A DNA stretch of 64,000 nucleotides from Actinomycetota bacterium (GTDB lineage: Bacteria; Actinomycetota; Actinomycetes; Mycobacteriales; SCTD01). Where the stretch lies: NCBI GenBank assembly GCA_033851845.1, contig JAWWOH010000104.1:30922-94921 (forward strand), given 5' to 3'. This document shows, one piece after another, positions 27,204 through 39,734 of the stretch; the first letter of the stretch is position 1, and the number at the start of each line of letters is the position of its first letter. A program made the translations under genes and the position numbers. The notes beneath the pieces were generated by a model that ran no database searches, was not told the origin of the DNA, and worked only from the letters and a program-made list of their open reading frames with translations.

Positions 27204-28538
27204 GTGCGCACAGCGGCCCGGCGGCAGCTCGTCGTCCTCGGGGCGTTGAGCGCGAGCCTGCTGACCGTGGGCAGCTACGGGGTCGGGGCCGTGCCGGCTT
27301 CGCTCGACTCGTGGCTGCACGGCTCGTCAGTCGGCCGCGCGCTCTGCTACGCCCTCGTGGCTGTCGGTGTGCTCGGGCTGCTGTCCGCGTGGTGGTCCTT
27401 GCGCGGGGCCCCGACTCGGGTGGTGCTGCTCTTCTCGGCAGCATGGACCGCGCCGTTGCTCGTCGCCGCGCCGCTGTTCACTCGCGACGTGTTCGCGTAC
27501 GCCGGCCAGGGTCACCTCGTCGATGCAGGCATCGATCCCTACACGCACGGTCCGGCGGACGCGCCCGGCCCACTGTCAGCCGAGGTGGACGACGTCTGGG
27601 CGCACGCGCGGTCGCCGTACGGTCCGGTCTTCCTGCGCGTCGCGAGCTGGCTCGTGCCCGGTGAGCACGTCGCGGTCTCCCTGCTGCTGCTGCGGCTGCT
27701 CGCGGTGTGCGGTTTGCCGCTGATGGCCTGGGCGCTGGTGCGGATGTCCAGCGAACCGGCGCGCGCACTCTGGCTCGCGGTCGCCAACCCGCTCGTGCTG
27801 CTGCACGGCGTCGCGGGTGCGCACAACGACCTGTTGATGGCCGGGCTGCTGGCTGCGGGAATCGCCATCGCGGTCCGGTCCGGGCCTCGCGTTCTGCTGA
27901 CCCTCGCCGGAGGGGCGGCAGTCATCACGATCGCCGCACTGGTCAAGGCGCCCGCGATCGTGGCCCTGCCGTTCCTGCCGTTCGCCGTGCCGAAGCAGCG
28001 CATCCGCACCGCGATCACCGTTGCGGTGAGCGCCGTCCTCACAGCTATCGGAGTTACGGTCGCGACGGGTCTCGGGTCGGGCTGGCTGCACACGCTTGGC
28101 GCGGGCAACCCACGCCGCAACCTGCTGTCGGTGTCCACCGGGGCCGGCGCTCTCGTCTCGCCCGTCGCCGGCGACGGTGCGGTGGATGCGGCACGCCTGG
28201 CCGGGCTCGTCGTCGCCGGTGCCGTTGCTGTGTGGATGCTGCTCCGCGTCGCACCCGTCGACCCGCTGCGCGCGCTCGGGCTCACCCTGCTCGCGGTCGC
28301 GGTCCTCGGGCCGGTCGTGCAGCCGTGGTACCTGCTGTGGGCGTTGCCGCTGCTGGCCTGTGTCGCCGGTCCACGCCTCGCCGCCGGGCTCGCGGCGGCG
28401 TGCGGCGTGCTGTGCCTGTTGATCCTCCCGAGCGGGCGGCACGTCATCCGGCCACCGCTGTACGGCGTACCAGCTGTCCTCGTGATCGCGGCCGGTTACG
28501 CAGCGTCGCGGTACCCCCGTGGTGCGGCGGCCCCATAA
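27204..28538 (+). CDS. polyprenol-phosphate-mannose-dependent alpha-1,6-mannosyltransferase (MptA/MptB family, GT-C)
   Basis: Polytopic membrane protein with TRDVFAYAGQG...GIDPYTHGP...SPYGPVF in the first loop. In-frame GTG at 27204. Confidence 0.7.
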   Translation: MRTAARRQLVVLGALSASLLTVGSYGVGAVPASLDSWLHGSSVGRALCYALVAVGVLGLLSAWWSLRGAPTRVVLLFSAAWTAPLLVAAPLFTRDVFAYAGQGHLVDAGIDPYTHGPADAPGPLSAEVDDVWAHARSPYGPVFLRVASWLVPGEHVAVSLLLLRLLAVCGLPLMAWALVRMSSEPARALWLAVANPLVLLHGVAGAHNDLLMAGLLAAGIAIAVRSGPRVLLTLAGGAAVITIAALVKAPAIVALPFLPFAVPKQRIRTAITVAVSAVLTAIGVTVATGLGSGWLHTLGAGNPRRNLLSVSTGAGALVSPVAGDGAVDAARLAGLVVAGAVAVWMLLRVAPVDPLRALGLTLLAVAVLGPVVQPWYLLWALPLLACVAGPRLAAGLAAACGVLCLLILPSGRHVIRPPLYGVPAVLVIAAGYAASRYPRGAAAP

Positions 28539-28554
28539 GGGGAAGGATCGGGGC

Positions 28555-30165
28555 ATGCGCCGACCCACCATCGCCCTGACCGCACTCGTCGCCGGCGGCG
28601 TGCTCGCCGCCCCTGGGCTCATCGGACTGGCCGGCGCGGCGCCGATCAAGACCGCCGCGGCGGGCTGCCCGGCTCCCCCGCAGCTCACGTTCGACGCGCC
28701 GACGTACGTCGACAAGACCCGGGCCGGCGGCGAGCCCTTGGTCTTCACCTACCCGACCGGACGGCTGCTCTACAGCGCGCATGCCGGCACGACGCACTTC
28801 TTCGCGCCGGAGGCACCGAACGCCGGCACGGCCGCCTTCGGCGAGAACTACACCGGGCAGACCTACATCTGGACCAGCGACGACAACGGCAAGACCTGGA
28901 CGTTCCGGCCGCGCGTCATCGCCCCCAGCGGCGCCCCGGCTTCGGGGTTCTCCGATCCCGAGTTCGCGATGGACAGCTCCGGCGGCCTGTACTTCTCCGA
29001 GATCAACCTCGCCAACGTCGCCGTCAGCAGCAGCCGCGAGGACCACGGCACGACGTGGAACCTGGAGAACTTCACCGGTGCGGTGCTCACCGACCGGCAG
29101 TGGATGGAAGCCGACCGAAAGGGCGAGCTGTACTTCGTTGCGAACGGCCAGCCCGGCGGCACCGGCATCCCGCCCGGCGTCGAGAGCGGTCACTACATCA
29201 GCAAGAGCACCGACGGCGGGAAGACCTTCACGGCGAGCATCCCCGACACCGTCGGCGGCCAGGGTCTCGGTGACCTGCGCGTCGACAAGCGAACCGGCAC
29301 GGTCTACGAGGCGCACTACGACGGCAACAAGCTCTCCCTTGCCGCCTTCCGCAAGGCCCGCACGGGTGACCTGAAGGCGACGGACACCAACGTCGTCGCC
29401 GAGGGCGTCAAGATGCTGGCGCACTGGCCGGCCTTCGACCTCGACCCCGACGGCAACATCTACATCACGTGGGACGAGAGCGGCCATGGCGACCGCGACG
29501 CCGGCATCTACTACTCGCGTTCCACCGACGGCGGCCGGACCTGGGCCACGCCCGTCCGCGTCGACCCTGACGACAACACCGACATCTGGCCGTGGATCGG
29601 CGTGGGCGACGACGGCCGGGTCGGCATCGCGTGGTTCGGCGCGGACAAGAAGCTGCCCAACCAGGACGCCCAGACCACCGGCACCTACGGGTGGCGGGTC
29701 TTCGGCGCCGTGACGACGACCGGACTCGGCTGCGCCGCCAGCAAGACGCCGAGCTTCAGCGTCGCGATCGCCACGAAGGACCCGATCCACACCGGCACGA
29801 TCTGCCAGGGGGGCACGGTCTGCCAGGCTCAGCTGATCGACCGCCGGCTCGGCGACTACTTCTCGGTCGACGTCGACGGCACCGGCCGGCTGTGGGCCGG
29901 CTACTCCGACACCCGGGTTCCCGGCTCGGTGTCGCTGCCGGCCTTCGTCCGGCAGCAGGGCGGGCCGTCGCTGCTGCTTCCGAAGAGGCGGGGTACGACG
30001 CCGACGGCAACGACCGGGCGGCCCCCGGTTGCGGTCGACCCCGCCAGCACACCCCGAGCCTCGGGCGGCGGCTCCCTGGCCGGCACCGGTCCGGGTGCAC
30101 AGCTCCCGGTCGCGGCTGCGCTGATGATCGTCGGCGCACTCCTGCTGCGCCGCCGCCGGGTTTAG
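28555..30165 (+). CDS. BNR/sialidase-like beta-propeller protein with LAxTG sorting signal
   Basis: ATG after AAGGGGAAGGA, signal peptide, and BNR repeats [25 protein letters not shown]-terminus is LAGTG plus a hydrophobic stretch plus RRRRV. Confidence 0.7.
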
Positions 30166-30818
30166 GCCTCGTCGAGCCGGCGGGTGAGGTCGGCAGCCGC
30201 CGCATGCGGGTCGGCGGCCTCCGTCAGCGCCCGGACCACGACGACGCGACGCGCGCCGGCCTCGAGGACCTGGTCGAGGTTGGCGGCGTCGATGCCGCCG
30301 ATCGCGAACCACGGCCGTGGGCTGGCCACCTCGGCCGCCACCTGCAGCAGCGGCAGGCCCGGCGCCGGCCGGCCAGGCTTCGTCGGAGTCGGCCAGGTCG
30401 GCCCGACGCAGAAGTAGTCGACCCCCGACTCCAGCGCCGCGGCGCGAACCTGCTGCTCGTCGTGCGTCGAGCGGCCGATCAGCACGTCGTTGCCGAGCAG
30501 CGCGCGGGCCGCCGCCACCGGCAGGTCGTCCTGGCCGAGATGCAGGACATCGGGTCGTACGACGGCGGCGATGTCGGCGCGGTCGTTGACCGACCACAGC
30601 GCGCCGTGCTTCTCGGCCGCCTCGGAGAACACCTCGCACAGCGCGATCTCGTCGCGCGCCTCGAGACCCTTCTCGCGCAGCTGGACGCAATCGACGCCGC
30701 CGGCCAGGACGGCGTCGAGGAACTCGGGCAGGTCGCCGCGGTCACGGCGGGCGTCCGTGCACAGGTAGAGCCGCGCCGCGGCGAGCCGCTCGCGACGGGC
30801 TGGGCCGACGTCAGCCAC
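30162..30818 (-). CDS. thiE: thiamine-phosphate synthase
   Basis: [34 protein letters not shown], and IGGI near the C-terminus. The GTG overlaps the thiS stop. Confidence 0.9.
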
Positions 30819-31011
30819 CGGCCACCGCCCGCACCAGCTCGAGCCGGTCTCCGTCGCCGAGCCGCGCCGCGGCCAGCTCCGACCGCAGCAGCGCCGTGCC
30901 GTTGTGCTCCACGACGACGCTGCCGACCCGCAGGCCCAGCGACTCGAGCAGCGCCGGCAGCGCGATGCCGTCGGCAACGTCGGTCGGCGTGCCGTTGATG
31001 ACGAGCTGCAC
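30811..31011 (-). CDS. thiS: sulfur carrier protein ThiS
   Basis: 66 aa, VQLVINGTP...[12 protein letters not shown]...[14 protein letters not shown], with the C-terminal GG. Confidence 0.85.
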
Positions 31012-31343
31012 TAGAAGCCTGCCGCCTGGGCCCGCCGCTTGACCTCGGTGCCGCGGTTCTCCCGCAGGGCCTGCAGCGGGGTGCCGGGCAACGAGTCGTC
31101 GGCCGTCGTCAGCCAGCGCAGCGCCTCCTCGTCGGAGTACTTCGCGTCCCGCAGCAGGGTGATCACCGCCGGCAGGTGCTTGACCGGCTGACCGTCCTCG
31201 TCGAGCTGCTCGTCGAGGATGCACAGGATCTCGTCCCCGGGGCGTCGCACCGCAAGGACCCGCCCGTCCTTCAGCAGCTGACGGACCGCCATGATGTCGC
31301 GGCCGGTGCGCTCCGCGACGTCGGGCAACGCAAGCAGCTCCAT
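31011..31343 (-). CDS. Rv2175c-like DNA-binding protein
   Basis: 110 aa. MELLALPDVAERTG...VRQLLKDGRVLAVRR...VKHLPAVITLLRDAKYSDEEALRWL...SLPGTPLQAL...RRAQAAGF. Confidence 0.75.
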   Translation of the reverse strand: MELLALPDVAERTGRDIMAVRQLLKDGRVLAVRRPGDEILCILDEQLDEDGQPVKHLPAVITLLRDAKYSDEEALRWLTTADDSLPGTPLQALRENRGTEVKRRAQAAGF

Positions 31344-31382: not shown

Positions 31383-31838
31383 ATGACCGAGCAACCACCC
31401 CCCACCGACCGGCCCGCCGATGACGGCGGCGACGACGTGCTCGACGACCCCTGGCACGACTCGTTGGTCGAGGCCGGCGACGCCTTCGGCGCCACCGAGG
31501 TCGTGGCCGTCGTGGCCTTCGTGCTGGCGCTGTCGTCGGTGTTCAGCTGGGGTCTGCTCGACGGGAACGCCTACATCTCGCCGTTCATCGACGCACTGAG
31601 CGACAACGCGAACAAGACCGCCCTGGTCCTCGGCCCGGTGATCGGGGCCGTGCTGGCCCTGGTGCCGGTCTGGATGGGCTGGCTGGCCAGCGCGCGCTCT
31701 CTGGCGGACGACCCGCGATGGGTGATCGTGCTGGCCCGCAGCGCCGTCATCCTCGGGCTGGCATCTGGCTTTCTGCACCTCGTCGTCGCCGTGCTGATGG
31801 CCGCCCAGGACGGCGAGGTCCGCATCAGCAGCATCTGA
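31383..31838 (+). CDS. membrane protein, function unknown
   Basis: 151 aa with an acidic N-terminus followed by 4 predicted TM helices. Confidence 0.6.
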   Translation: MTEQPPPTDRPADDGGDDVLDDPWHDSLVEAGDAFGATEVVAVVAFVLALSSVFSWGLLDGNAYISPFIDALSDNANKTALVLGPVIGAVLALVPVWMGWLASARSLADDPRWVIVLARSAVILGLASGFLHLVVAVLMAAQDGEVRISSI

Positions 31839-32799
31839 CGACCGCGCCGCTCGCGGCACTCGCCCGGATGGCGTCGAGCACCGCCGCGGTGTCGCGGGAC
31901 TCCGCAAGCGGCAGGACCCAGCCGGGTCCGCCGGTCAGGACAGCAGAGAGCTCCTCGACCATCAGCTGGTAGGCGTTCGCCGCCGGCACGGGGATGCGCT
32001 CCGTGCCGCGTCCGTCCGAGACCATCAGCTCCGTCACGTCGTCCGTCCACGACGTGTACGGGGCATCGCGCAGCTCCATCTCGCCCTGCTCGCCGCGGAT
32101 GACGAGCCACTGGCCGTTGGCGCCCTCGATGCCGGCACGCACCTCGGCCTGGGCGCCGTCCGGCCACTCCAGGATCGCTTCGGTCGTCAGATCGACACCC
32201 GACGATCCGTACGCCGATCGAGCGCTGACGTGCGAAGGCAGCCCGGCAGCAATCGCCCAGAGGCACGCGGACACGGCGTAGCAGCCCACGTCGTACAGCG
32301 CACCGCCGCCGCGAGCGGGATCGAGCCGGTAGTTGCCGGCCAGCCGACCGTCGAAGGTGAAGCCGGCCGCGACGTGCCGGATCGGGCCGAGGTCGGGCAG
32401 CCGCTCCTGGGCCAGCCGGATCCGGGGATGCCAGCGGTACCAGGACGCCTCGACCAGCAACCGGCCGGTCTCGGCCGACACAGCTCTCAGCTCGTCGACC
32501 TCGGCCGTCGACAGCGCGAGCGGCTTCTCGCAGAGCACCGCCTTGCCGGCCCGCATCGCTGCGACAGACCAAGGCAGGTGCTGCTCGTTGCTCAACGAGA
32601 TGTAGACCGCATCGACGTCGTCATCGGCGAGCAGCTCCGCGTAGCCGGCGTACGCCGAGACCGGACCGAGCGCGCGGGCCCGGTCGATGTCGCGGGCGGC
32701 GACCGCCTGAAGCGATGCACCGGCAGCCGCGTGCACCGCCGGCGCAAGTGCACCCGTGGCGATCCCACCGGCCCCGAGGAAGCCCCATCGCACCGTCAC
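31825..32799 (-). CDS. Gfo/Idh/MocA family oxidoreductase
   Basis: VRWGFLGAGGIA Rossmann start and the EKP motif (VLCEKPLA). GTGA overlap with the upstream gene. Confidence 0.85.
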   Translation of the reverse strand: MTVRWGFLGAGGIATGALAPAVHAAAGASLQAVAARDIDRARALGPVSAYAGYAELLADDDVDAVYISLSNEQHLPWSVAAMRAGKAVLCEKPLALSTAEVDELRAVSAETGRLLVEASWYRWHPRIRLAQERLPDLGPIRHVAAGFTFDGRLAGNYRLDPARGGGALYDVGCYAVSACLWAIAAGLPSHVSARSAYGSSGVDLTTEAILEWPDGAQAEVRAGIEGANGQWLVIRGEQGEMELRDAPYTSWTDDVTELMVSDGRGTERIPVPAANAYQLMVEELSAVLTGGPGWVLPLAESRDTAAVLDAIRASAASGAVVRCC

Positions 32800-34403
32800 G
32801 CCGGCGGGGTGACCGGCCGGCCGCCGTCGCGTGCAGACTCGGTCGCGGCCTGCATCACCGCGATGTTGCGACGCGAGCCGGCCGGCGTCACCTCCATCGG
32901 CTCGCCCGACAGCAGCTGGTCGGCGAGCTGGCGGTGGAACGGCTCCACCGGTGCGGCCGGGATCGACATCAACGTCTCCGACGTACCGCCGCTGCCGTCC
33001 GGGGTGAACAGCCGCAGCGCGGCCGGCGCATCGCTGTGCGCGAGCCGGTCCTCCAGCAGCGTGCCGATCTCGCTGCGACCCACGACGCGCTCGTGCCGCC
33101 AGTCGCCGAGGATTCCGCCGCGCGTGCCGAGGGCGTAGAACTTCGGCTTCAGCGCCGCGGCGAGGTCGGAGTGCGTGAACTCGGCCTCGACGCCGTCGGC
33201 GAAGTGCAGCAGCACGCGGGTGTGATCGGCGTTCGTGACGTCGTGCCAGACGCGTTTGTGTGCGGTCGCCGAGACCCAGTCGACCGGTTGCGGGAACAGG
33301 TCGAGCGCCCAGTCCAGGTAGTGGCTCCCCCAGTCGTAGATCGCCCCTCCGCTGACCGTCTCGTCGGAGTGCCAGTAGTTGCATGGATGCCCGTAGCCGC
33401 CGATGAAGCTCTCGTAGTGGAAGACGTCGCCGAGCTGACGGCCCCGCACCGCCTTCTTCAGGGCTAGGTAGTCGGCGTCCCAGCGACGGTTCTGGTAGAC
33501 GGCCAGGGTGAGGCCGCGCTCGGCCGCGGCGCAGATCTGCCGGTCCGCTTCGTCGACTGTGAGGCAGAACGGCTTCTCGACGACGACGCTCCTGCCGGCC
33601 TCGAGGCAGCGGATCGCCCACTCGGCGTGGGTGTTCGGTGGCGTGCTCACGATGACGAGGTCGACCCCGTCGTCGGCGAGCAGGTCGTCGACGGCGCGCA
33701 CGTCGGGTGCAGCCGCCCGCGCGGCCGCGATCCGGGTCGGGTCGGGGTCGCAGACGGCCGCCAACTCGAGCCCCTGCGTCCGGCGGATCGCCTTGCTGTG
33801 CTCGTGCCCGATGGCGCCGTAACCCAGCAGACCGACGCGCACCGGCGGCCCGTCGACGTGACCGCTGATGTGCAGCAGCAGCCGGTGAACAATGCGCTGC
33901 CACGCCGGGTCGGCGTACGTCTGGTCGGTCGAGCCCACGGTGAGCACGCCGAGGCCGGTGGTCGATCGCCAGGTCGCCACCGCATGGTCGGTGAACGCGA
34001 CATTCGCAGTCAGCAGCACCGCAACGTCGTCGGCCACCTTGTCCTGCACCGGCCAGCGGTCCGTGACCACCAGGTCGCCGCCCAGCCGGGCTGCGACGTC
34101 GCCGGCATCGCGGCCCGGACGCACCCGGATCTCGTGCACGGGCGTCAGCTGGCCCGGCACCAGCCCGGCGGCATCGGTGAGTGCGGTGCTCATGGTGGGG
34201 CCGACGACCAGGATGGGCCGTGGATCGGCCAGCAGCGCGTCCTCTACCGCTTCGGCGAGGCCGCCGGCGCCGAGCACGAGCACGGCGCCCGCTTCGCTGT
34301 CATCGCTCACCGCGACACCGCAACGGGCCAAGTAGTCGAGCAGCGGACGGTCTCGGAGGGCGTCGGCGGAGATCACGGAGACGCGGGTCAAGGCGTGGCT
34401 CAT
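32796..34403 (-). CDS. Gfo/Idh/MocA oxidoreductase with an extra ~190-aa N-terminal domain
   Basis: C-terminal part has VRVGLLGYGAIG, VVVEKPF, AVYQNRRWD. The N-terminal domain is of uncertain family (possibly ThuA-like). Confidence 0.8.
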   Translation of the reverse strand: MSHALTRVSVISADALRDRPLLDYLARCGVAVSDDSEAGAVLVLGAGGLAEAVEDALLADPRPILVVGPTMSTALTDAAGLVPGQLTPVHEIRVRPGRDAGDVAARLGGDLVVTDRWPVQDKVADDVAVLLTANVAFTDHAVATWRSTTGLGVLTVGSTDQTYADPAWQRIVHRLLLHISGHVDGPPVRVGLLGYGAIGHEHSKAIRRTQGLELAAVCDPDPTRIAAARAAAPDVRAVDDLLADDGVDLVIVSTPPNTHAEWAIRCLEAGRSVVVEKPFCLTVDEADRQICAAAERGLTLAVYQNRRWDADYLALKKAVRGRQLGDVFHYESFIGGYGHPCNYWHSDETVSGGAIYDWGSHYLDWALDLFPQPVDWVSATAHKRVWHDVTNADHTRVLLHFADGVEAEFTHSDLAAALKPKFYALGTRGGILGDWRHERVVGRSEIGTLLEDRLAHSDAPAALRLFTPDGSGGTSETLMSIPAAPVEPFHRQLADQLLSGEPMEVTPAGSRRNIAVMQAATESARDGGRPVTPPA

Positions 34404-34412
34404 GCCCGCAGG

Positions 34413-35570
34413 CTAAGCGGACTTCACCGGCACCGCAGGATCGGCCAGCCGATCGGGATCGGGAGCGAAGCCCTCGGTCATCCGCCGACGGCCCTGCACG
34501 AGGTCGCGCGGTCGGTCCACGGTCAGCATCGCCACCAGCCGGCCGGCGGCCAGCCAACAGAACGCCCAGCCGTTCGGGTCGCCGGGCTCGCCTCGGCGTA
34601 CGACGGAGTCGAACCCCTTCGCGAAGCCGGCCCACTGAATCGTGTGACCGAGCTGGTCGGACCAGAAGTACGGGATGGGGTCGTAGATCGCGTCCCTGCC
34701 GAGCAGGGTGGCGACCGCCACGGCCGGACCGTGCAGCGCGTCGTCCCAGTGCTCGACCCGCAACCGGGTGTCGTACCGCGGCGACCACCGCGCAACGCAG
34801 TCACCCACCGCGACGACGCCCGGCACACTGGTCGCCAGGTGCTCGTCGACGAGCACGCCGTGGTCGACCTCGATCGCACTGCCCTCGAGCCAGCCGGTCT
34901 CCGGCCCGGCCCCCACGGCGACCAGCACGAGCTCTGCGGCGACCTTCTCCCCCGACTCGAGGACGACCGCCTTGCGCTGCACCGACTTTGCCGCCGTGTC
35001 GAGCCTCAGGTCGATGCCGAGATCGGCGTACCACGGGATCGTCAGCCGCCCTACCTCGACGGGAAGCGCCGTCAGCGGGGCCGGCCCGGCCTCGATGACC
35101 GTCACGTCGCAACCCGCCTGCGCCGCACCGGTCGCGACCTCCGCGCCGATCCACCCGGCGCCGACGATGACCAGCTTCGTGCCCTCGGTGAGATGTACCG
35201 CGAGCGAGTGCGCGTCGTCGATGGTGCGCAACGCGGCGCCGAACCCCTTGAGTCGGATCGGTACGCCGCCGCTGGCGATCACGAGGCCGTCGTACGGCAC
35301 GTCGCCCTCGGCCGTCTCGACGAAGCCCTCGCGAAGCCCCGTCGCCGGCCGGCCCAGGTGCAGGTCGACGTCGAGATCGCCCCAGGCGACGTCGAGCTGC
35401 ACGTGGTCGTCCCCGCCGCGCAGCACCTCCTTGGACAGGGGCGGCCGGTCGTAAGGCAGGTGCTGCTCCGCCGCGAGCACCGTGATCGCACCCTCGTAGC
35501 CCTGCGTACGGAGCTCCTGCACGCTGCGCGCGCCGGCCAGGCCGCCACCGACGACGACCACCCTCCTCAT
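34413..35570 (-). CDS. NAD(P)/FAD-dependent oxidoreductase of the ferredoxin-reductase type
   Basis: MRRVVVVGGGLAGARS, PYDRPPLSK, and a second GxGxxG (LVIVGAGWIGAE). Confidence 0.85.
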   Translation of the reverse strand: MRRVVVVGGGLAGARSVQELRTQGYEGAITVLAAEQHLPYDRPPLSKEVLRGGDDHVQLDVAWGDLDVDLHLGRPATGLREGFVETAEGDVPYDGLVIASGGVPIRLKGFGAALRTIDDAHSLAVHLTEGTKLVIVGAGWIGAEVATGAAQAGCDVTVIEAGPAPLTALPVEVGRLTIPWYADLGIDLRLDTAAKSVQRKAVVLESGEKVAAELVLVAVGAGPETGWLEGSAIEVDHGVLVDEHLATSVPGVVAVGDCVARWSPRYDTRLRVEHWDDALHGPAVAVATLLGRDAIYDPIPYFWSDQLGHTIQWAGFAKGFDSVVRRGEPGDPNGWAFCWLAAGRLVAMLTVDRPRDLVQGRRRMTEGFAPDPDRLADPAVPVKSA

Positions 35571-35986
35571 AGGAGAAGTGTCCGTCGCCTCCACGCCCAA
35601 CGCAGGGTCGCCACGCTGGCGAAGACCGTGACGACGTTGATGACCAGCTCGATCGCGCCACCACCTCCGGACGTCCAGATGTCGTGCTCTACGTCGTACA
35701 GGACATCCATGGCAGCGAGGTAGATCCCGGCGCCGCCACCGGCGAGCATCCAGAGCAGCGCGCCGCGTCGATACCGCCACAACGCCTCGGCGGCGAGCAG
35801 CGCACACAGGCTGAGCCACGCGTCCGCCAGCGGGAAGGCGTTCTCGAACTCGATGTACGCCGGCCGCGTCGAGGAAACCAGCAGCGAACGGTCAGCGAAG
35901 TACCAGGTGAGCCAGTACGCCAGCATGATCGCCACGGCGCCGACGAGCGCCCACGCGACGACGTTCTTGCGACGAAGGTCAGGCAT
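35567..35986 (-). CDS. small membrane protein (139 aa), function unknown
   Basis: 4 predicted TM helices. The start overlaps the permease stop by 8 nt and the stop overlaps the next start (ATGA). Confidence 0.6.
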   Translation of the reverse strand: MPDLRRKNVVAWALVGAVAIMLAYWLTWYFADRSLLVSSTRPAYIEFENAFPLADAWLSLCALLAAEALWRYRRGALLWMLAGGGAGIYLAAMDVLYDVEHDIWTSGGGGAIELVINVVTVFASVATLRWAWRRRTLLL

Positions 35987-36767
35987 CACGACGGACGAGC
36001 GCGACACCTGCCAGAGCGAGCGCGACGACGGCGTACAGGAAGAACACCAGCAGTCCGGTCCACGGACCGAGGGTGTTCGGGTCGGGACGGAGGCTGGTGA
36101 TGACGGTGCCGGCGTTGCTCGGCAGGTACTTCTCGATCGCGTCGCTCCAGCTGGCCGGTAAGAAGTGCACCACGATGGAGACGACGAAGAGCAGGCCGAA
36201 CAGGGACGTGATGGCCGCGGCTGTGTTGCGAAGCAGCGCGCCGAGGCCGAGGCCGAGCAGGCCCACACCGGTGAGGTAGAGCGCTCCGCCGAGCACGGCA
36301 CGCGCGACGTGCTCGTCACCGAACCCGATGTCGATGCCCTTCGACGACAGGATCGCCTGGCCGATGAGGAACGCCGACAGCTGCGCGCCCGACGCGAGGA
36401 CGAGACACGTCACGCCGTAGACCAGCGCCTTGGCCCAGAGGACGGGGATGCGCTTCGGGACGGCCGACAACGTGGCCCGGATCATGCCCGTTGCGTACTC
36501 GCCGGTGATGAACAGCACTCCGAGCACGCCGAAGGCGAGCTGAGCGAAGAAGCCGCCGACCAGACTGGCTCCCACCGGGTCGAAGGTCGCAGCATCACGC
36601 GGGTTGGTGGGCGGCCAGTGATGGACGACCACCTCGGGAACCAGAACCGCGAAGCCGATCAGGAACGCGACCGCGGCCAGGAGCGCCCAGACGGTCGACC
36701 GGAGAGTCCGCAGCTTCGTCCACTCGGAAAGCATGACGCGGACCGGCGTCACGCGGATGCCGCTCAT
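35979..36767 (-). CDS. ABC-2 type transporter permease
   Basis: MSGIRVTPVRVMLSEWTKLRTLRST..., 6 TM helices. ATGA overlap with the ATPase gene. Confidence 0.8.
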   Translation of the reverse strand: MSGIRVTPVRVMLSEWTKLRTLRSTVWALLAAVAFLIGFAVLVPEVVVHHWPPTNPRDAATFDPVGASLVGGFFAQLAFGVLGVLFITGEYATGMIRATLSAVPKRIPVLWAKALVYGVTCLVLASGAQLSAFLIGQAILSSKGIDIGFGDEHVARAVLGGALYLTGVGLLGLGLGALLRNTAAAITSLFGLLFVVSIVVHFLPASWSDAIEKYLPSNAGTVITSLRPDPNTLGPWTGLLVFFLYAVVALALAGVALVRRDA

Positions 36768-37669
36768 GCGCGGCTGCCGGTGAACTCGAGGGAGTCGTGG
36801 GTGAGCTCCATGAACGCCTCTTCCAGCGACGCCGCCTGCGCGGTCAGCTCCAGCAGGGTGATGCCGGCACCGCCGGCGGCGATGCCGATCTCGTCGGTGC
36901 TCAGACCGGCGACGCTCAAGGCGCCGTCGACGGGTGTGACGATCGCCTTCGACTTCTCCAGCAGCGCTGTCAGGCCCTTCGGATCGGTCGTGCGGACCCG
37001 CACGAGGTTGCGACCGGCCGAGCGGATGAACTCCTGCACGCCGACATCCGCGATCAAGCGGCCCTTGCCGACGACGAGCAGGTGGTCGGCCGTCTGCGCC
37101 ATCTCGGCCATCAGGTGCGACGACACGAGCACGGTGCGGCCGCCGGCCGCGCGTTCCTTCAGCAGCTCGCGGATCCAGCGGATCCCCTCGGGGTCGAGGC
37201 CGTTGACCGGCTCGTCGAGCACCAGCGTGCTGGGGTCGCCGAGAAGCGCCGTCGCGATGCCAAGCCGTTGGCCCATGCCGAGGGAGAAGCTCTTGACCCG
37301 CTTGCGCGCGACGTCGCGCAGCCCGACGACGTCGATCAGCTCGTCGACGCGCGTCTTCGGGATGCCCGTCGTCTGGGCCAGCGCGATGAGGTGGTTGCGC
37401 GCCGACCGACCCGTGTGAATGGCGCGCGCTTCGAGCAGCGCACCGACCTCGTGCAGCGGTGCCCTGTGGTCGCGGTAGGCCTTGCCGTTGACGGTCACGG
37501 TGCCAGCAGTCGGGCGATCCAGTCCCAGGATCATCCGCATCGTCGTCGACTTGCCGGCGCCGTTCGGGCCGAGGAAGCCGGTCACGACACCCGGGCGGAC
37601 GACGAAGGACAGGTTGTCGACAGCCAGCTTGTCGCCATACCTCTTCGTCAAGCCATGCGCCTCGATCAC
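36764..37669 (-). CDS. ABC transporter ATP-binding protein (ABC-2 exporter type)
   Basis: Walker A GPNGAGKSTT, signature FSLGMGQR, Walker B LVLDEP. The GTG start overlaps the thiH stop (GTGA). Confidence 0.9.
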   Translation of the reverse strand: MIEAHGLTKRYGDKLAVDNLSFVVRPGVVTGFLGPNGAGKSTTMRMILGLDRPTAGTVTVNGKAYRDHRAPLHEVGALLEARAIHTGRSARNHLIALAQTTGIPKTRVDELIDVVGLRDVARKRVKSFSLGMGQRLGIATALLGDPSTLVLDEPVNGLDPEGIRWIRELLKERAAGGRTVLVSSHLMAEMAQTADHLLVVGKGRLIADVGVQEFIRSAGRNLVRVRTTDPKGLTALLEKSKAIVTPVDGALSVAGLSTDEIGIAAGGAGITLLELTAQAASLEEAFMELTHDSLEFTGSRA

Positions 37670-38802
37670 GCGAGCACCTCTCGGTCGTCGCGCTGATCTC
37701 CCCGAAGCGGGAACGCGTCCTTCCACACCGGCTCGTAGCCGGCTGCGTCCAGCATGGCAGCAACGGCGGCGGGCGTGCGCTCGTCGGAGACGGCGAACTG
37801 CTCCTGCGCCAGGCCCGGCGTGGTGTAGCCGCCGGGCTCGGTGGACGAGCCGGCGCTCATCGTCGTGACCGCGATCCGTACCAGCCCGTCGCGCAGCGCC
37901 GCCGGCTCGCGGGTCGACAACACGATGCCGGCTTCGGGTGCTGCCAGCCGCAGCGCAGCGAGCGCTTGGACGTACTCCGCGTCGGTCACGGCGACAACCG
38001 GCTGGAACCCGGATGCGCTCGGCTTGATGCGCGGCAGCGCGACCGTGACCTCGGTGCGCCAGTACTCACGTTGCAGCCAGGTCGCGTGATGTGCGACCGC
38101 GAGGACGTCGGCGCGCCAGTCGGTGCTCAAGCCGAGCAGCGCGCCGATGCCGAGGCGGCGTACGCCGGCTTCGGCAGCGCGCTCGGTCGACGACAGCCGG
38201 CGGTCGTAGTCGCGCTTCCAGCCGGCCAGGTGCGTCTGCGCGTAGCGCGCGCGGTCGTAGGTCTCCTGGTAGTGCACGACGCCTTCCAGCCCGGCGTCGA
38301 CGAGCCGGACGTAGGTGTCGTCGGACCAGGTCTGCGTCTCGATGCTGATGCTCGGGACGTGCGGCCGCAGCCGCTCGACGCACTCGACGAGATAGTCGGC
38401 ACTGACCTCGATGCGGTGCTCGCCGGCGACCAGCAAAAGATGCCGGAAGCCTTGCTGGGTAAGGGCTTTCGCCTCCTCGACGACTTCGTCGACGGACAGT
38501 GTCCTACGTACGACGTCGAGTCCTTTGCTGAAGCCGCAGTAGGTGCATGACGACAGGCACGCGTTGCTGACGTAGAGCGGAGCGAAGAGGCGGACGGCAC
38601 GACCGAAGCGCTGCAGGGTGGCGGCGCGGGCAGCCTGCGCGAGCTCCTCGAGTCGTGCCGTCGCGGCTCGACTCAGCAGGGCGGGGAGCGTGGCGAGACC
38701 GGGGTGCTGCAGCGCGTGATCGACGTCGGCCTCGTCGTACTCGCGGGTGTGCAGGTCGACGCCGTCGATGTACGTCGCGAACCGGCCGGGAGGAGTGCTC
38801 AA
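37666..38802 (-). CDS. thiH: 2-iminoacetate synthase (tyrosine lyase), radical SAM
   Basis: CLSSCTYC (CxxxCxxC). By-eye colinearity with E. coli ThiH: [49 protein letters not shown]. The TTG start overlaps the thiG stop. Confidence 0.9.
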
Positions 38803-39596
38803 GACAGAAAGCCGGTCAGCGGGCTGGAGGCCTCGGCGGTGTCGAGGACGGCACCGCGGCCGGCGAGGTGGCCGAGACGGCCGGCCTCGGTGGCGAGCGC
38901 GAACGCGCGCGCCATCCGCACCGGATCGGATGCCACCGCGATGGCGGTGTTGACGAGCACGGCATCGGCGCCGATCTCCATCGCCTCGGCGGCATCACTC
39001 GGCACACCGAGACCTGCGTCGACGACGACCGGAACGTGCGCCTGCTCGACGATGACCTCGATCGCGTCTCGGGTGCGCAGGCCGCGGTTGCTGCCGATCC
39101 ATGCGCCGAGCGGCATGACCGTTGCGCAGCCCGCCTCCTCGAGGTGCCGGCACAGCACAGGGTCGGCGGAGCAGTAGGGCAGTACGACGAAGCCCTCGAC
39201 CACCAGCCGCTCTGCTGCTCTCAGCGTCTCGATCGGGTCGGGCGCCAGGGTGCGCGGGTCGGGCGTCACCTCGAGCTTCACCAGGTCGGCGCCGGTCGCC
39301 GCCCGGCCGAGCCGGGCCAGCCGCACCGCCTCGTCCGCGTCGATCGCGCCGGAGGTGTTGGGCAGCAGCGTCATCCCGGGCGGCACGAAGTCGAGGACGT
39401 CGCCGCCCTGCGCACTCCCGATGGCCTGCCGGTCGAGGTCGACCCGGCGCAGGGCGACGGTGACGATCTCGGCGCCGCTGGCCAGCAGGGCGTCGCGCAT
39501 CACCGCATGTGAGCGGAACTTGCCGGTGCCGACGAGCAGCCGGCTGGCGTACGCGCGCCCCGCGATGACCAGGGGATCCCCCGGGTCGAGTGCCAT
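38799..39596 (-). CDS. thiG: thiazole synthase
   Basis: [27 protein letters not shown]..., 265 aa, typical ThiG TIM barrel. Confidence 0.95.
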
Positions 39597-39600
39597 GTCG

Positions 39601-39695
39601 TCTCCCCACGCCGGCGTTACCCGGATCGGGTGCTGCGGGTCGCCGACGGGCTGGTCGGCCTCTCAGCCCGCGTCCGCGGGCTCCCCGGTACTGAC
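39601..39695 (-). promoter_or_regulatory. TPP (THI-box) riboswitch
   Basis: The minus strand reads ...GGGGAGCCCGCGGACGCGGGCTGAGAGGCCGACCAGCCCGTCGGCGACCCGCAGCACCCGATCCGGGTAACGCCGGCGTGGGGAGA-CGAC-ATG. CTGAGA and ACCCGATCCGGGTAACGCCGGCG match the THI-box consensus. A -10-like TAGAGT lies at 39708-39703. Confidence 0.85.
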
Positions 39696-39734
39696 AGGCC
39701 CGACTCTAACCGCGCGCCGCTCCGCTCCCGCCGA

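Follow-up and report, generated by a model that had tools for sequence, protein, structure and literature searches.

Why should six non-thiamine genes stand behind thiG and thiH, downstream of a thiamine pyrophosphate (TPP) riboswitch, and do they serve the chemistry of ThiH? The question is raised by a 64-kb stretch of actinomycetotal DNA with a GC content of 71% (assembly GCA_033851845.1, contig JAWWOH010000104.1), which we call the window at its full length. A first reading of this sequence (the original prediction) had proposed a TPP-repressed operon in which the six genes after thiH provide by-product efflux, detoxification and electron supply for ThiH. We consider it likely that the locus is a standard TPP-riboswitch thiG-thiH operon carrying six acquired passengers, which would be repressed by thiamine by virtue of their position and would not be dedicated to ThiH chemistry. 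The block runs along the minus strand in the order riboswitch, thiG, thiH, ATP-binding cassette (ABC) ATPase, permease, mem139, fdr, gfo1 and gfo2, with the following features.

39703-39708, minus: TAGAGT, a -10-like hexamer of the actinobacterial TAnnnT type, read directly from the sequence
39586-39697, minus: TPP (THI-box) aptamer, RF00059, with core helices P2-P5 at about 39695-39601
39601-39607, minus: Shine-Dalgarno-like GGGGAGA, within the 3' strand of P4 and the P1 region
38799-39596, minus: thiG, thiazole synthase, 265 aa; Pfam ThiG (PF05690), 338.6 bits, model positions 2-247 of 247
37666-38802, minus: thiH, radical S-adenosylmethionine (SAM) 2-iminoacetate synthase, 378 aa, TTG start; TIGR02351
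36764-37669, minus: ABC transporter ATPase, 301 aa, DrrA/NodI/lantibiotic-protection type; ABC_tran, 94.2 bits
35979-36767, minus: ABC-2 permease, 262 aa; ABC2_membrane_2 (PF12679), a weak pass at 30.4 against 27.2
35567-35986, minus: mem139, a 139-aa membrane protein with no Pfam or NCBIfam family
34413-35570, minus: fdr, FdR9-type NADH-ferredoxin reductase, 385 aa; Pyr_redox_2 and Reductase_C
32796-34403, minus: gfo1, 535-aa fusion dehydrogenase with a ThuA-like part (residues 1-187) and a Gfo/Idh/MocA part (188-535), by Pfam, PDB and an AlphaFold2 model
31825-32799, minus: gfo2, a second Gfo/Idh/MocA oxidoreductase, 324 aa, by Pfam; GTGA overlap with gfo1

Direct reading of the sequence recovered all eight open reading frames (ORFs) and their seven junctions exactly where the original prediction had put them: in order, TTGA, GTGA, ATGA, an 8-nt overlap, ATGA, a 9-nt gap and GTGA. 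GC content at third codon positions (GC3) is 0.84-0.91 in each of the eight, the coding signature of this genome. The thiazole genes had also been described as fused to those that follow; the genes do overlap, but they are separate ORFs and there is no true fusion.

The assignments of thiG and thiH are borne out by Pfam and NCBIfam scores, by motif and by adjacency. ThiH scores 431.8 bits against the NCBIfam equivalog TIGR02351 (cut-off 380) and contains Radical_SAM and BATS domains, with the CX3CX2C motif as CLSSCTYC at residue 82; the start of its gene overlaps the end of thiG. Radical-SAM enzymes need a low-potential reductant. ThiH releases p-cresol and requires a reductant (PMC9046217). 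The last ten or so residues of ThiH (window positions 37666-37700) are unmatched in most relatives, where alignments end at residues 362-370, so the GTGA junction between thiH and the ABC ATPase looks lineage-specific.

Upstream of thiG, RF00059 matches over its full length (model positions 1-105 of 105, 52.0 bits, E 2.5e-9 in a local search); against the whole window the same match has an E-value of 2.7e-7 and is the sole RNA family with E <= 0.01. The conserved TPP core is present (CUGAGA, ACCCGAUC...GGUAA.GCC..CG.GGGA). An RNAalifold consensus of 18 relatives comprises P2, P3 and P4/P5 with 24 pairs, 9 of which show compensatory double changes and essentially none of which is broken, and a strict regular expression applied to 24 loci of the clade found a single aptamer in each, invariably upstream of thiG. 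Given these compensatory pairs and the single aptamer ahead of thiG in every related locus, the TPP riboswitch is, on sequence grounds, genuine, and the THI-box aptamer of the original prediction stands on a full-length, if sub-threshold, RF00059 match. The TAGAGT placed at 39708-39703 is likewise present and keeps the TAnnnT form in relatives, its T, A and final T being invariant across the 18 aligned sequences; it went undetected in a generic sigma-70 promoter scan.

The thiG Shine-Dalgarno had been described as the 3' end of the aptamer, and direct reading confirms this: GGGGAGA is followed by CGAC and then by the thiG ATG at 39596, placing it 4 nt before the start, and GGGGAG is kept in nearly all Frankiales-clade relatives. 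Three of its Gs form the 3' strand of P4 (G135-G137 pair with C112-C114, alignment A2) and the rest lies at the P1 3'-strand position; the Shine-Dalgarno is thus part of the aptamer itself. Minimum free energy folding of the leader gave no signal (z = -1.0).

We propose that TPP binding would stabilise P4/P5 (and P1), hide the Shine-Dalgarno and block translation of thiG. The eight overlapping or near-touching ORFs would form one mRNA, in which lost thiG translation would lower expression of the distal genes through lost translational coupling, Rho-dependent polarity and mRNA decay. A single transcript from thiG to gfo2 is a reasonable inference from the sequence, because the eight ORFs overlap or nearly touch and no internal terminator or promoter appears above shuffle expectation. 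Between 31000 and 40200, a terminator scan returned one weak terminator-like site, inside the permease gene, where shuffled sequence averages 1.4, and no intrinsic terminator after the aptamer or in the block exceeded shuffle expectation; a scan of the same 9.2 kb not tuned to actinobacterial promoters found no sigma-70-like promoter.

The block does not end the thiamine genes. The original prediction held thiG and thiH to be the only known thiamine genes, which is right within the eight-gene block but overlooks thiS and thiE about 0.8 kb downstream, so that thiamine genes flank the six non-thiamine genes on both sides. The downstream features are the following.

31383-31838, plus: convergent membrane ORF, 151 aa, GC3 0.89; overlaps the gfo2 stop by 14 nt
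31011-31343, minus: Rv2175c-like winged helix-turn-helix DNA-binding protein, 110 aa; Rv2175c_C 88.8 bits, Rv2175c_wHTH 35.1 bits
30811-31011, minus: thiS, sulfur-carrier protein, 66 aa, ending ...AVAGG; Pfam ThiS, 36.5 bits
30162-30818, minus: thiE, thiamine-phosphate synthase, 218 aa; TMP-TENI, 179 bits

To place this arrangement among relatives, we scanned with ThiH a set of genomes in which each GTDB species has a single representative, retained the 80 best loci and mapped all block and flank proteins onto them (loci are cited by L numbers). The nearest belong to Frankiales/Mycobacteriales metagenome-assembled genomes (MAGs) and to Frankia/Parafrankia, at 69-90% identity. Four nearer relatives, L081, L082, L090 and L091, were recovered by protein searches and lie outside the 80. 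A common frame is seen in 30 or more Frankiales/Mycobacteriales loci: a kinase and a LysM/SLT gene on the opposite strand, then riboswitch, thiG, thiH, a slot, the Rv2175c-like gene, thiS and thiE. The Rv2175c-like gene is the downstream anchor of the slot and immediately precedes thiS-thiE wherever a related locus has sufficient flank. In outgroup actinobacterial loci (L029, L036) thiG, thiH, thiS and thiE are contiguous. What occupies the slot varies from locus to locus, some of the cargo lying on the opposite strand:

Empty: L012, L021
fdr-gfo1-gfo2: L003, L004
gfo1-gfo2: L006
fdr-gfo1: Frankia/Parafrankia L020, L022, L023
gfo1 alone: L018
D-serine-dehydratase-like gene and others: L001, L002, L024
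TMEM175 channel, gene on the reverse strand, STAND NTPase and lastly fdr: L008, L010, L014
TetR and a binding protein: L005, L009
SNF2 helicase: L007
WYL protein, aldo-keto reductase and GNAT: L015
DUF4333-fdr-TPM: L017

None of the six passenger genes lies beside thiH in about 45 loci of other phyla (mostly Verrucomicrobiota) or in the actinobacterial outgroups. Within the clade they are patchy: L090 is without mem139, gfo1 and gfo2, L006 and L024 are without fdr, and L003 and L004 are without the ABC pair, a distribution by which each passenger has been lost independently; the presence of gfo2 is independent of the other passengers in the mapped loci. The original prediction proposed to look for the eight-gene block in genomes that carry thiH. 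The block is present in L081, L082 and L091 and partly in L090, but not in the other thiH loci compared.

Two kinds of slot cargo recur. A D-serine-dehydratase-like gene (Ala_racemase_N and D-ser_dehydrat) is found immediately or shortly after thiH in L001 (5384-6478), L002 (12054-13049) and L024 (765-1757), and defence-like genes (a STAND NTPase with DUF4062/NB-ARC, a WYL protein, an SNF2 helicase and a DUF6036 nucleotidyltransferase) occur at L008 (12746-15319), L010, L014, L039 (12763-14475), L015 (11899-12603), L007 (6424-8718) and L002 (11311-11808). The slot behaves as a small variable island within a biosynthetic locus. We found no support for the idea that the window's block is itself a recent foreign island, as its GC3 and codon-position GC match those of the neighbouring genes and no repeats or scars are visible at the junctions.

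The ABC pair is one of these passengers. By architecture the ATPase and permease make up a two-gene exporter of ABC-2 type, with no binding-protein gene in the block by Pfam or the ORF list. The best NCBIfam subfamily matches of the ATPase all fall under their cut-offs, and the permease has more than 6000 homologues. Neither the pair nor mem139 is found beside thiH in any of the 80 ThiH loci. All six passengers are present in L081 and L082, together with the convergent ORF, and in L091, where the convergent ORF is missing and 11 co-directional genes run from thiG to thiE; the slot of L090 holds only the ABC ATPase, permease and fdr. On a neighbour-joining tree of ThiH, the window and these four loci form a single terminal clade, and its sisters, L024 and L006, are without the ABC pair. 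No cultured representative of this clade was met with, and the nearest arrangement in Frankia and Parafrankia strains is thiG-thiH-fdr-gfo1. Terrabacter sp. BE26 (L088) and another MAG of the Frankiales (L089) carry ATPase-permease pairs of about 65% identity as a free-standing module in surroundings unrelated to thiamine. From this restriction to one terminal clade and the similar pairs in unrelated contexts, the ABC pair is, as far as sequence comparison goes, one recent insertion of a generic module.

The membrane protein mem139 matches no Pfam or NCBIfam family even at E <= 10 and has 710 homologues, one of them known from Nocardia (P0233); at the thiH site it was seen only in the ABC-bearing clade. 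Its homologues at 55-63% identity are solitary genes in three contexts, each different from the others, and L090 keeps the ABC pair without it. We therefore discarded the idea that mem139 and the ABC-2 pair are obligate partners, given the pair on its own in L090 and the solitary distant homologues.

The gfo1 product looks like a ThuA-like/ThuB-like fusion with the architecture of a sugar dehydrogenase. Residues 188-535 have YvaA/YhhX/DgpA-type sugar dehydrogenases as their nearest PDB sequences. Residues 1-187 match no Pfam family even at E <= 10, the ThuA model included, but their AlphaFold2 model (pLDDT, the predicted local distance difference test, 91.8) has the ThuA-like structure 4jqs as its top Foldseek match (template-modelling score 0.72, E 1e-7), with class-I glutamine amidotransferases next in line. 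The modelled resemblance draws on this fold match together with the Gfo/Idh/MocA part, since ThuA and ThuB jointly form 3-keto-disaccharides (PMC8121099). No sugar transporter or catabolic gene was found in the surroundings of gfo1.

From these comparisons we would reconstruct an ancestral order thiG-thiH-thiS-thiE, in which the stretch from thiH to Rv2175c-like-thiS-thiE may have turned into a gene-exchange slot within an order-level clade. The fdr gene and the ThuAB-like/Gfo dehydrogenases would be old but dispensable residents, fdr at least probably predating the difference between ThiO and ThiH described below, and the ABC-2 pair would have entered the site next to thiH in a single event, in the shallow lineage to which the window belongs.

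The distal genes might nevertheless escape the riboswitch, with promoters inside the thiH, ABC or mem139 coding sequences leaving only thiG and thiH responsive to TPP. Where the ABC insertion is missing, the gap between thiH and fdr is about 110-390 nt (L003, L004) or 30-80 nt (Frankia), so the older residents may have had a promoter of their own, and the opposite-strand slot genes of several genomes require separate transcription of Rv2175c-thiS-thiE; a translational riboswitch, moreover, need not fully silence distal cistrons. The window itself offers no intergenic space, only overlaps of 4-8 nt and the single 9-nt gap, its overlap junctions are kept across the subclade, and the untuned promoter scan drew a blank. 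Weighing the two sides, we regard internal promoters as possible but doubtful for the genes up to gfo2. The Rv2175c-thiS-thiE trio (30162-31343) is another matter. It is tightly coupled, with a 1-nt overlap (TAGTG) between the Rv2175c-like gene and thiS and an 8-nt overlap (GTGGCTGA) between thiS and thiE, and is without a riboswitch of its own: no second riboswitch was found ahead of fdr, the Rv2175c-like gene, thiS or thiE in the window, nor in L091, L004, L006 or L012. With opposite-strand slot genes in several genomes, the window included, and no second riboswitch, the trio probably has its own promoter.

The most persistent of the six passengers is fdr, found in about 17 of 27 ThiH-type loci and absent from L006, L024, L018, L012, L021, L013, L015 and L039. 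By sequence it is an oxygenase-coupled NADH-ferredoxin reductase of the FdR9/BphA4/putidaredoxin reductase type: its best PDB match, over the full length, is 6TUK (FdR9 of Thermobifida fusca, E 2e-103), with further matches to BphA4 (E 1e-51) and PdR (E 6e-49). The block encodes neither a ferredoxin nor a flavodoxin; no ferredoxin-like Cys-motif ORF occurs in or near it, and the packing leaves no room for one.

Orthologues of fdr at 52-55% identity also occur in two loci of ThiO type, L105 and L099. L105 reads TPP riboswitch (59.0 bits), thiO (TIGR02352, 365.6 against 250.8), thiS (TIGR01683), thiG, DUF4333, fdr and the Rv2175c-like gene, with thiE further along, and its fdr is 52% identical to that of the window (E 8e-98). 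In L099 the order is riboswitch, thiO, thiS, thiG, with fdr 6.5 kb off and thiOSG on the opposite strand. ThiO is an O2-dependent flavoenzyme with no low-potential electron donor and no p-cresol. Since an orthologue accompanies this enzyme too, sequence comparison indicates that fdr tracks the locus and not ThiH, and we ruled it out as a ThiH-specific gene.

These ThiO-type loci share more of the neighbourhood: PASTA kinase, LysM/SLT, fdr, Rv2175c-like gene and thiE accompany thiO-thiS-thiG in L105 (5846-13529) and L099 (228-2489 and 9001-18693), which implies that ThiO and ThiH have been swapped at an orthologous locus within the group. DUF4333 stands directly before fdr both in L017 (7268-9149, ThiH type) and in L105 (8394-10161, ThiO type), which suggests that the DUF4333-fdr pair forms an older unit within this neighbourhood.

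Such linkage invites the explanation that fdr, and perhaps the ThuA-like/Gfo genes too, serve thiamine independently of ThiH, for instance in the repair of oxidised thiamine or thiazole, with the ABC pair and mem139 as passengers. In an orthology split from a metagenome scan with fdr, limited to loci with enough flank, relatives of at least 47% identity all lie in a thiamine locus upstream of the Rv2175c-like gene, between riboswitch-controlled thiazole genes of either type and Rv2175c-thiS-thiE, and those of at most 44% identity all lie elsewhere; non-biosynthetic oxidoreductases behind TPP riboswitches have a precedent (PMC11223231). The linkage is nevertheless confined to one order-level clade, unlike that of OarX in diverse bacteria, fdr has been lost repeatedly (the eight loci above), in L099 it sits away from the opposite-strand thiOSG, and inherited synteny beside the Rv2175c-like gene would explain the linkage equally well. 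We therefore think a ThiH-independent thiamine role improbable. A bolder version, to which we also give only a slim chance, would make fdr, perhaps with the gfo genes, an unrecognised member of the thiamine regulon in Frankiales/Mycobacteriales for both the ThiO and ThiH pathways, acting in salvage or repair or in sulfur-transfer redox, with the slot placing insertions under vitamin B1 regulation and the ABC-2 exporter recruited secondarily for by-product export.

Several observations weigh against the passenger account and its riboswitch control. The linkage of fdr to the thiamine locus exceeds what would be expected of a random passenger, and fdr might have some other thiamine-related role. 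The thiH/ABC (GTGA) and mem139/fdr (ATGA) overlaps are kept across the subclade; such conserved overlaps show selection for coupled expression, and a functional tie could underlie them. For the distal genes, a shared transcript and control by TPP are plausible from the gene packing only. The aptamer, at 52.0 bits, falls 2.3 below the Rfam gathering score of 54.3, an operational cut-off and not a structural feature, and a default Rfam scan of the window is consequently empty; the model's P1 positions are non-canonical and unpaired here, which accounts for the sub-threshold score. A shifted 4-bp P1 can be drawn by eye (UGUC/GACG in the window, CGUC/GACG in L081 and L082), though the RNAalifold consensus does not contain it.

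Aptamers of the ThiH-type clade score 44.3-54.4 bits, only that of L021 reaching the Rfam cut-off, and those of ThiO-type relatives score 57.5-59.0. The low scores of the window, L004, L006, L012 and L091 are attributed to a P1 region that differs from the model.

Weakest of all is the original service module, in which the ABC-2 exporter and mem139 remove p-cresol, the dehydrogenases detoxify and the reductase feeds electrons to ThiH through a ferredoxin or flavodoxin: although p-cresol release and a need for reductant are real for ThiH, the coupling to thiH is tight and conserved in L081, L082, L090 and L091, and fdr persists in many ThiH-type loci, we find it highly improbable, as the slot is elsewhere hypervariable, empty or filled with unrelated genes, the ABC pair is confined to one terminal clade (being found neither in Frankia, Acidimicrobiia and Actinomycetota outgroups nor in the loci of other phyla), fdr has its orthologues in ThiO-type loci, no ferredoxin or flavodoxin gene is in the block, gfo1 appears to have the architecture of a sugar dehydrogenase, and the flux through ThiH is tiny, making the p-cresol load negligible. 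No dedicated exporter is known from E. coli or other ThiH organisms.

At gfo2, the convergent ORF ends the co-directional run in the window; its own start lies some 40 nt away from that of the Rv2175c-like gene, which is divergent to it. It is called in L081, L082 and L090 (145-151 aa) and not in L091, has no Pfam or NCBIfam family, and gives a weak DUF6223/holin-like hint; a transcript reading through from the thi operon would run antisense to it. The Rv2175c-like gene could be a regulator of thiS-thiE or a mere fixed neighbour. On the plus strand, a gene at 28519-30165 converges on thiE, overlaps its 3' end by 4 nt and encodes a secreted protein of 548 aa with BNR/Asp-box repeats and a faint Tli3-like match; this gene is kept in L081, L082 and L090, followed in L081 and L082 by an MptA/B-family gene. 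Upstream of thiG, the plus strand carries LysM/SLT, PASTA Ser/Thr kinase and AP-endonuclease-fold genes and, further off, a DAHP synthase.

The preferred reading, a thiG-thiH operon with acquired passengers, bears on annotation as well as on this locus. In the Frankia-related clade the ThiH route lies under aptamers mostly of 44-54 bits, which leads standard pipelines to under-annotate its regulation, and the locus shows that a riboswitch operon can accommodate cargo of highly variable content in a slot between its first cistrons and its last. Tight gene packing in one genome does not establish shared function. The linkage of fdr across ThiO- and ThiH-type genomes provides a comparative-genomics lead akin to the OarX puzzle. 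A ThiH service module, if true, would mean that a radical-SAM vitamin enzyme has by-product disposal and an electron source of its own; the genome comparisons speak against it.

Among known systems, the closest are the thiazole operons represented by actinobacterial thiO-thiS-thiG and by thiCEFSGH of E. coli. They share with the window an RF00059 aptamer directly 5' of the thiazole genes, ThiG paired with a dehydroglycine-forming enzyme, and a Shine-Dalgarno in or next to the aptamer, implying translational control; the ThiO-type loci L105 and L099 are also alike in their flanks. The window differs in having ThiH in place of ThiO, unusual for an actinobacterium, in carrying thiS not beside thiG but with thiE behind the Rv2175c-like gene, in the six non-thiamine genes wedged after thiH, and in an aptamer just under the Rfam cut-off.

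OarX and FmnO offer the nearest parallel for the redox genes, being non-biosynthetic redox enzymes found with thi genes behind a TPP riboswitch, their role deduced from linkage alone (PMC11223231). OarX is a short-chain dehydrogenase/reductase and FmnO an FMN monooxygenase, whereas the window has an FNR-family reductase and Gfo/Idh/MocA proteins and is thus not of OarX type; OarX linkage spans diverse bacteria, and that of the window is confined to one Frankiales/Mycobacteriales clade, patchy, with a slot that takes unrelated cargo. FdR9 itself (Tfu_1273, 6TUK) resembles the fdr product in its architecture of FAD, NAD and C-terminal domains. Its gene adjoins those of CYP222A1 and the [3Fe-4S] ferredoxin Fdx8, its proposed redox partners (PMC7397466); the window's fdr has neither a ferredoxin nor a P450 neighbour.

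The disaccharide 3-dehydrogenase ThuA/ThuB of Sinorhizobium and Agrobacterium combines a ThuA-like fold and a Gfo/Idh/MocA part, which appear to be fused in gfo1. ThuA and ThuB are separate proteins encoded in a sugar-uptake operon, whereas gfo1 encodes one protein, with no sugar genes around it and no Pfam ThuA match. Exporters like DrrAB, NodIJ and NatAB have the window's order of ATPase then permease, the ATGA overlap and the lack of a binding protein, and such pairs are also found in Terrabacter and other actinobacteria; that of the window falls under every curated subfamily cut-off, and its position in a thiamine operon is limited to one shallow clade. Literature searches on TPP riboswitch, thiH and ABC transporter in Actinobacteria, and on thiH and thiamine in Frankia, returned no description of the arrangement. 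What is new here is a variant of the TPP-riboswitch thiazole operon, of ThiH type in an actinobacterial clade and with a hypervariable cargo slot.

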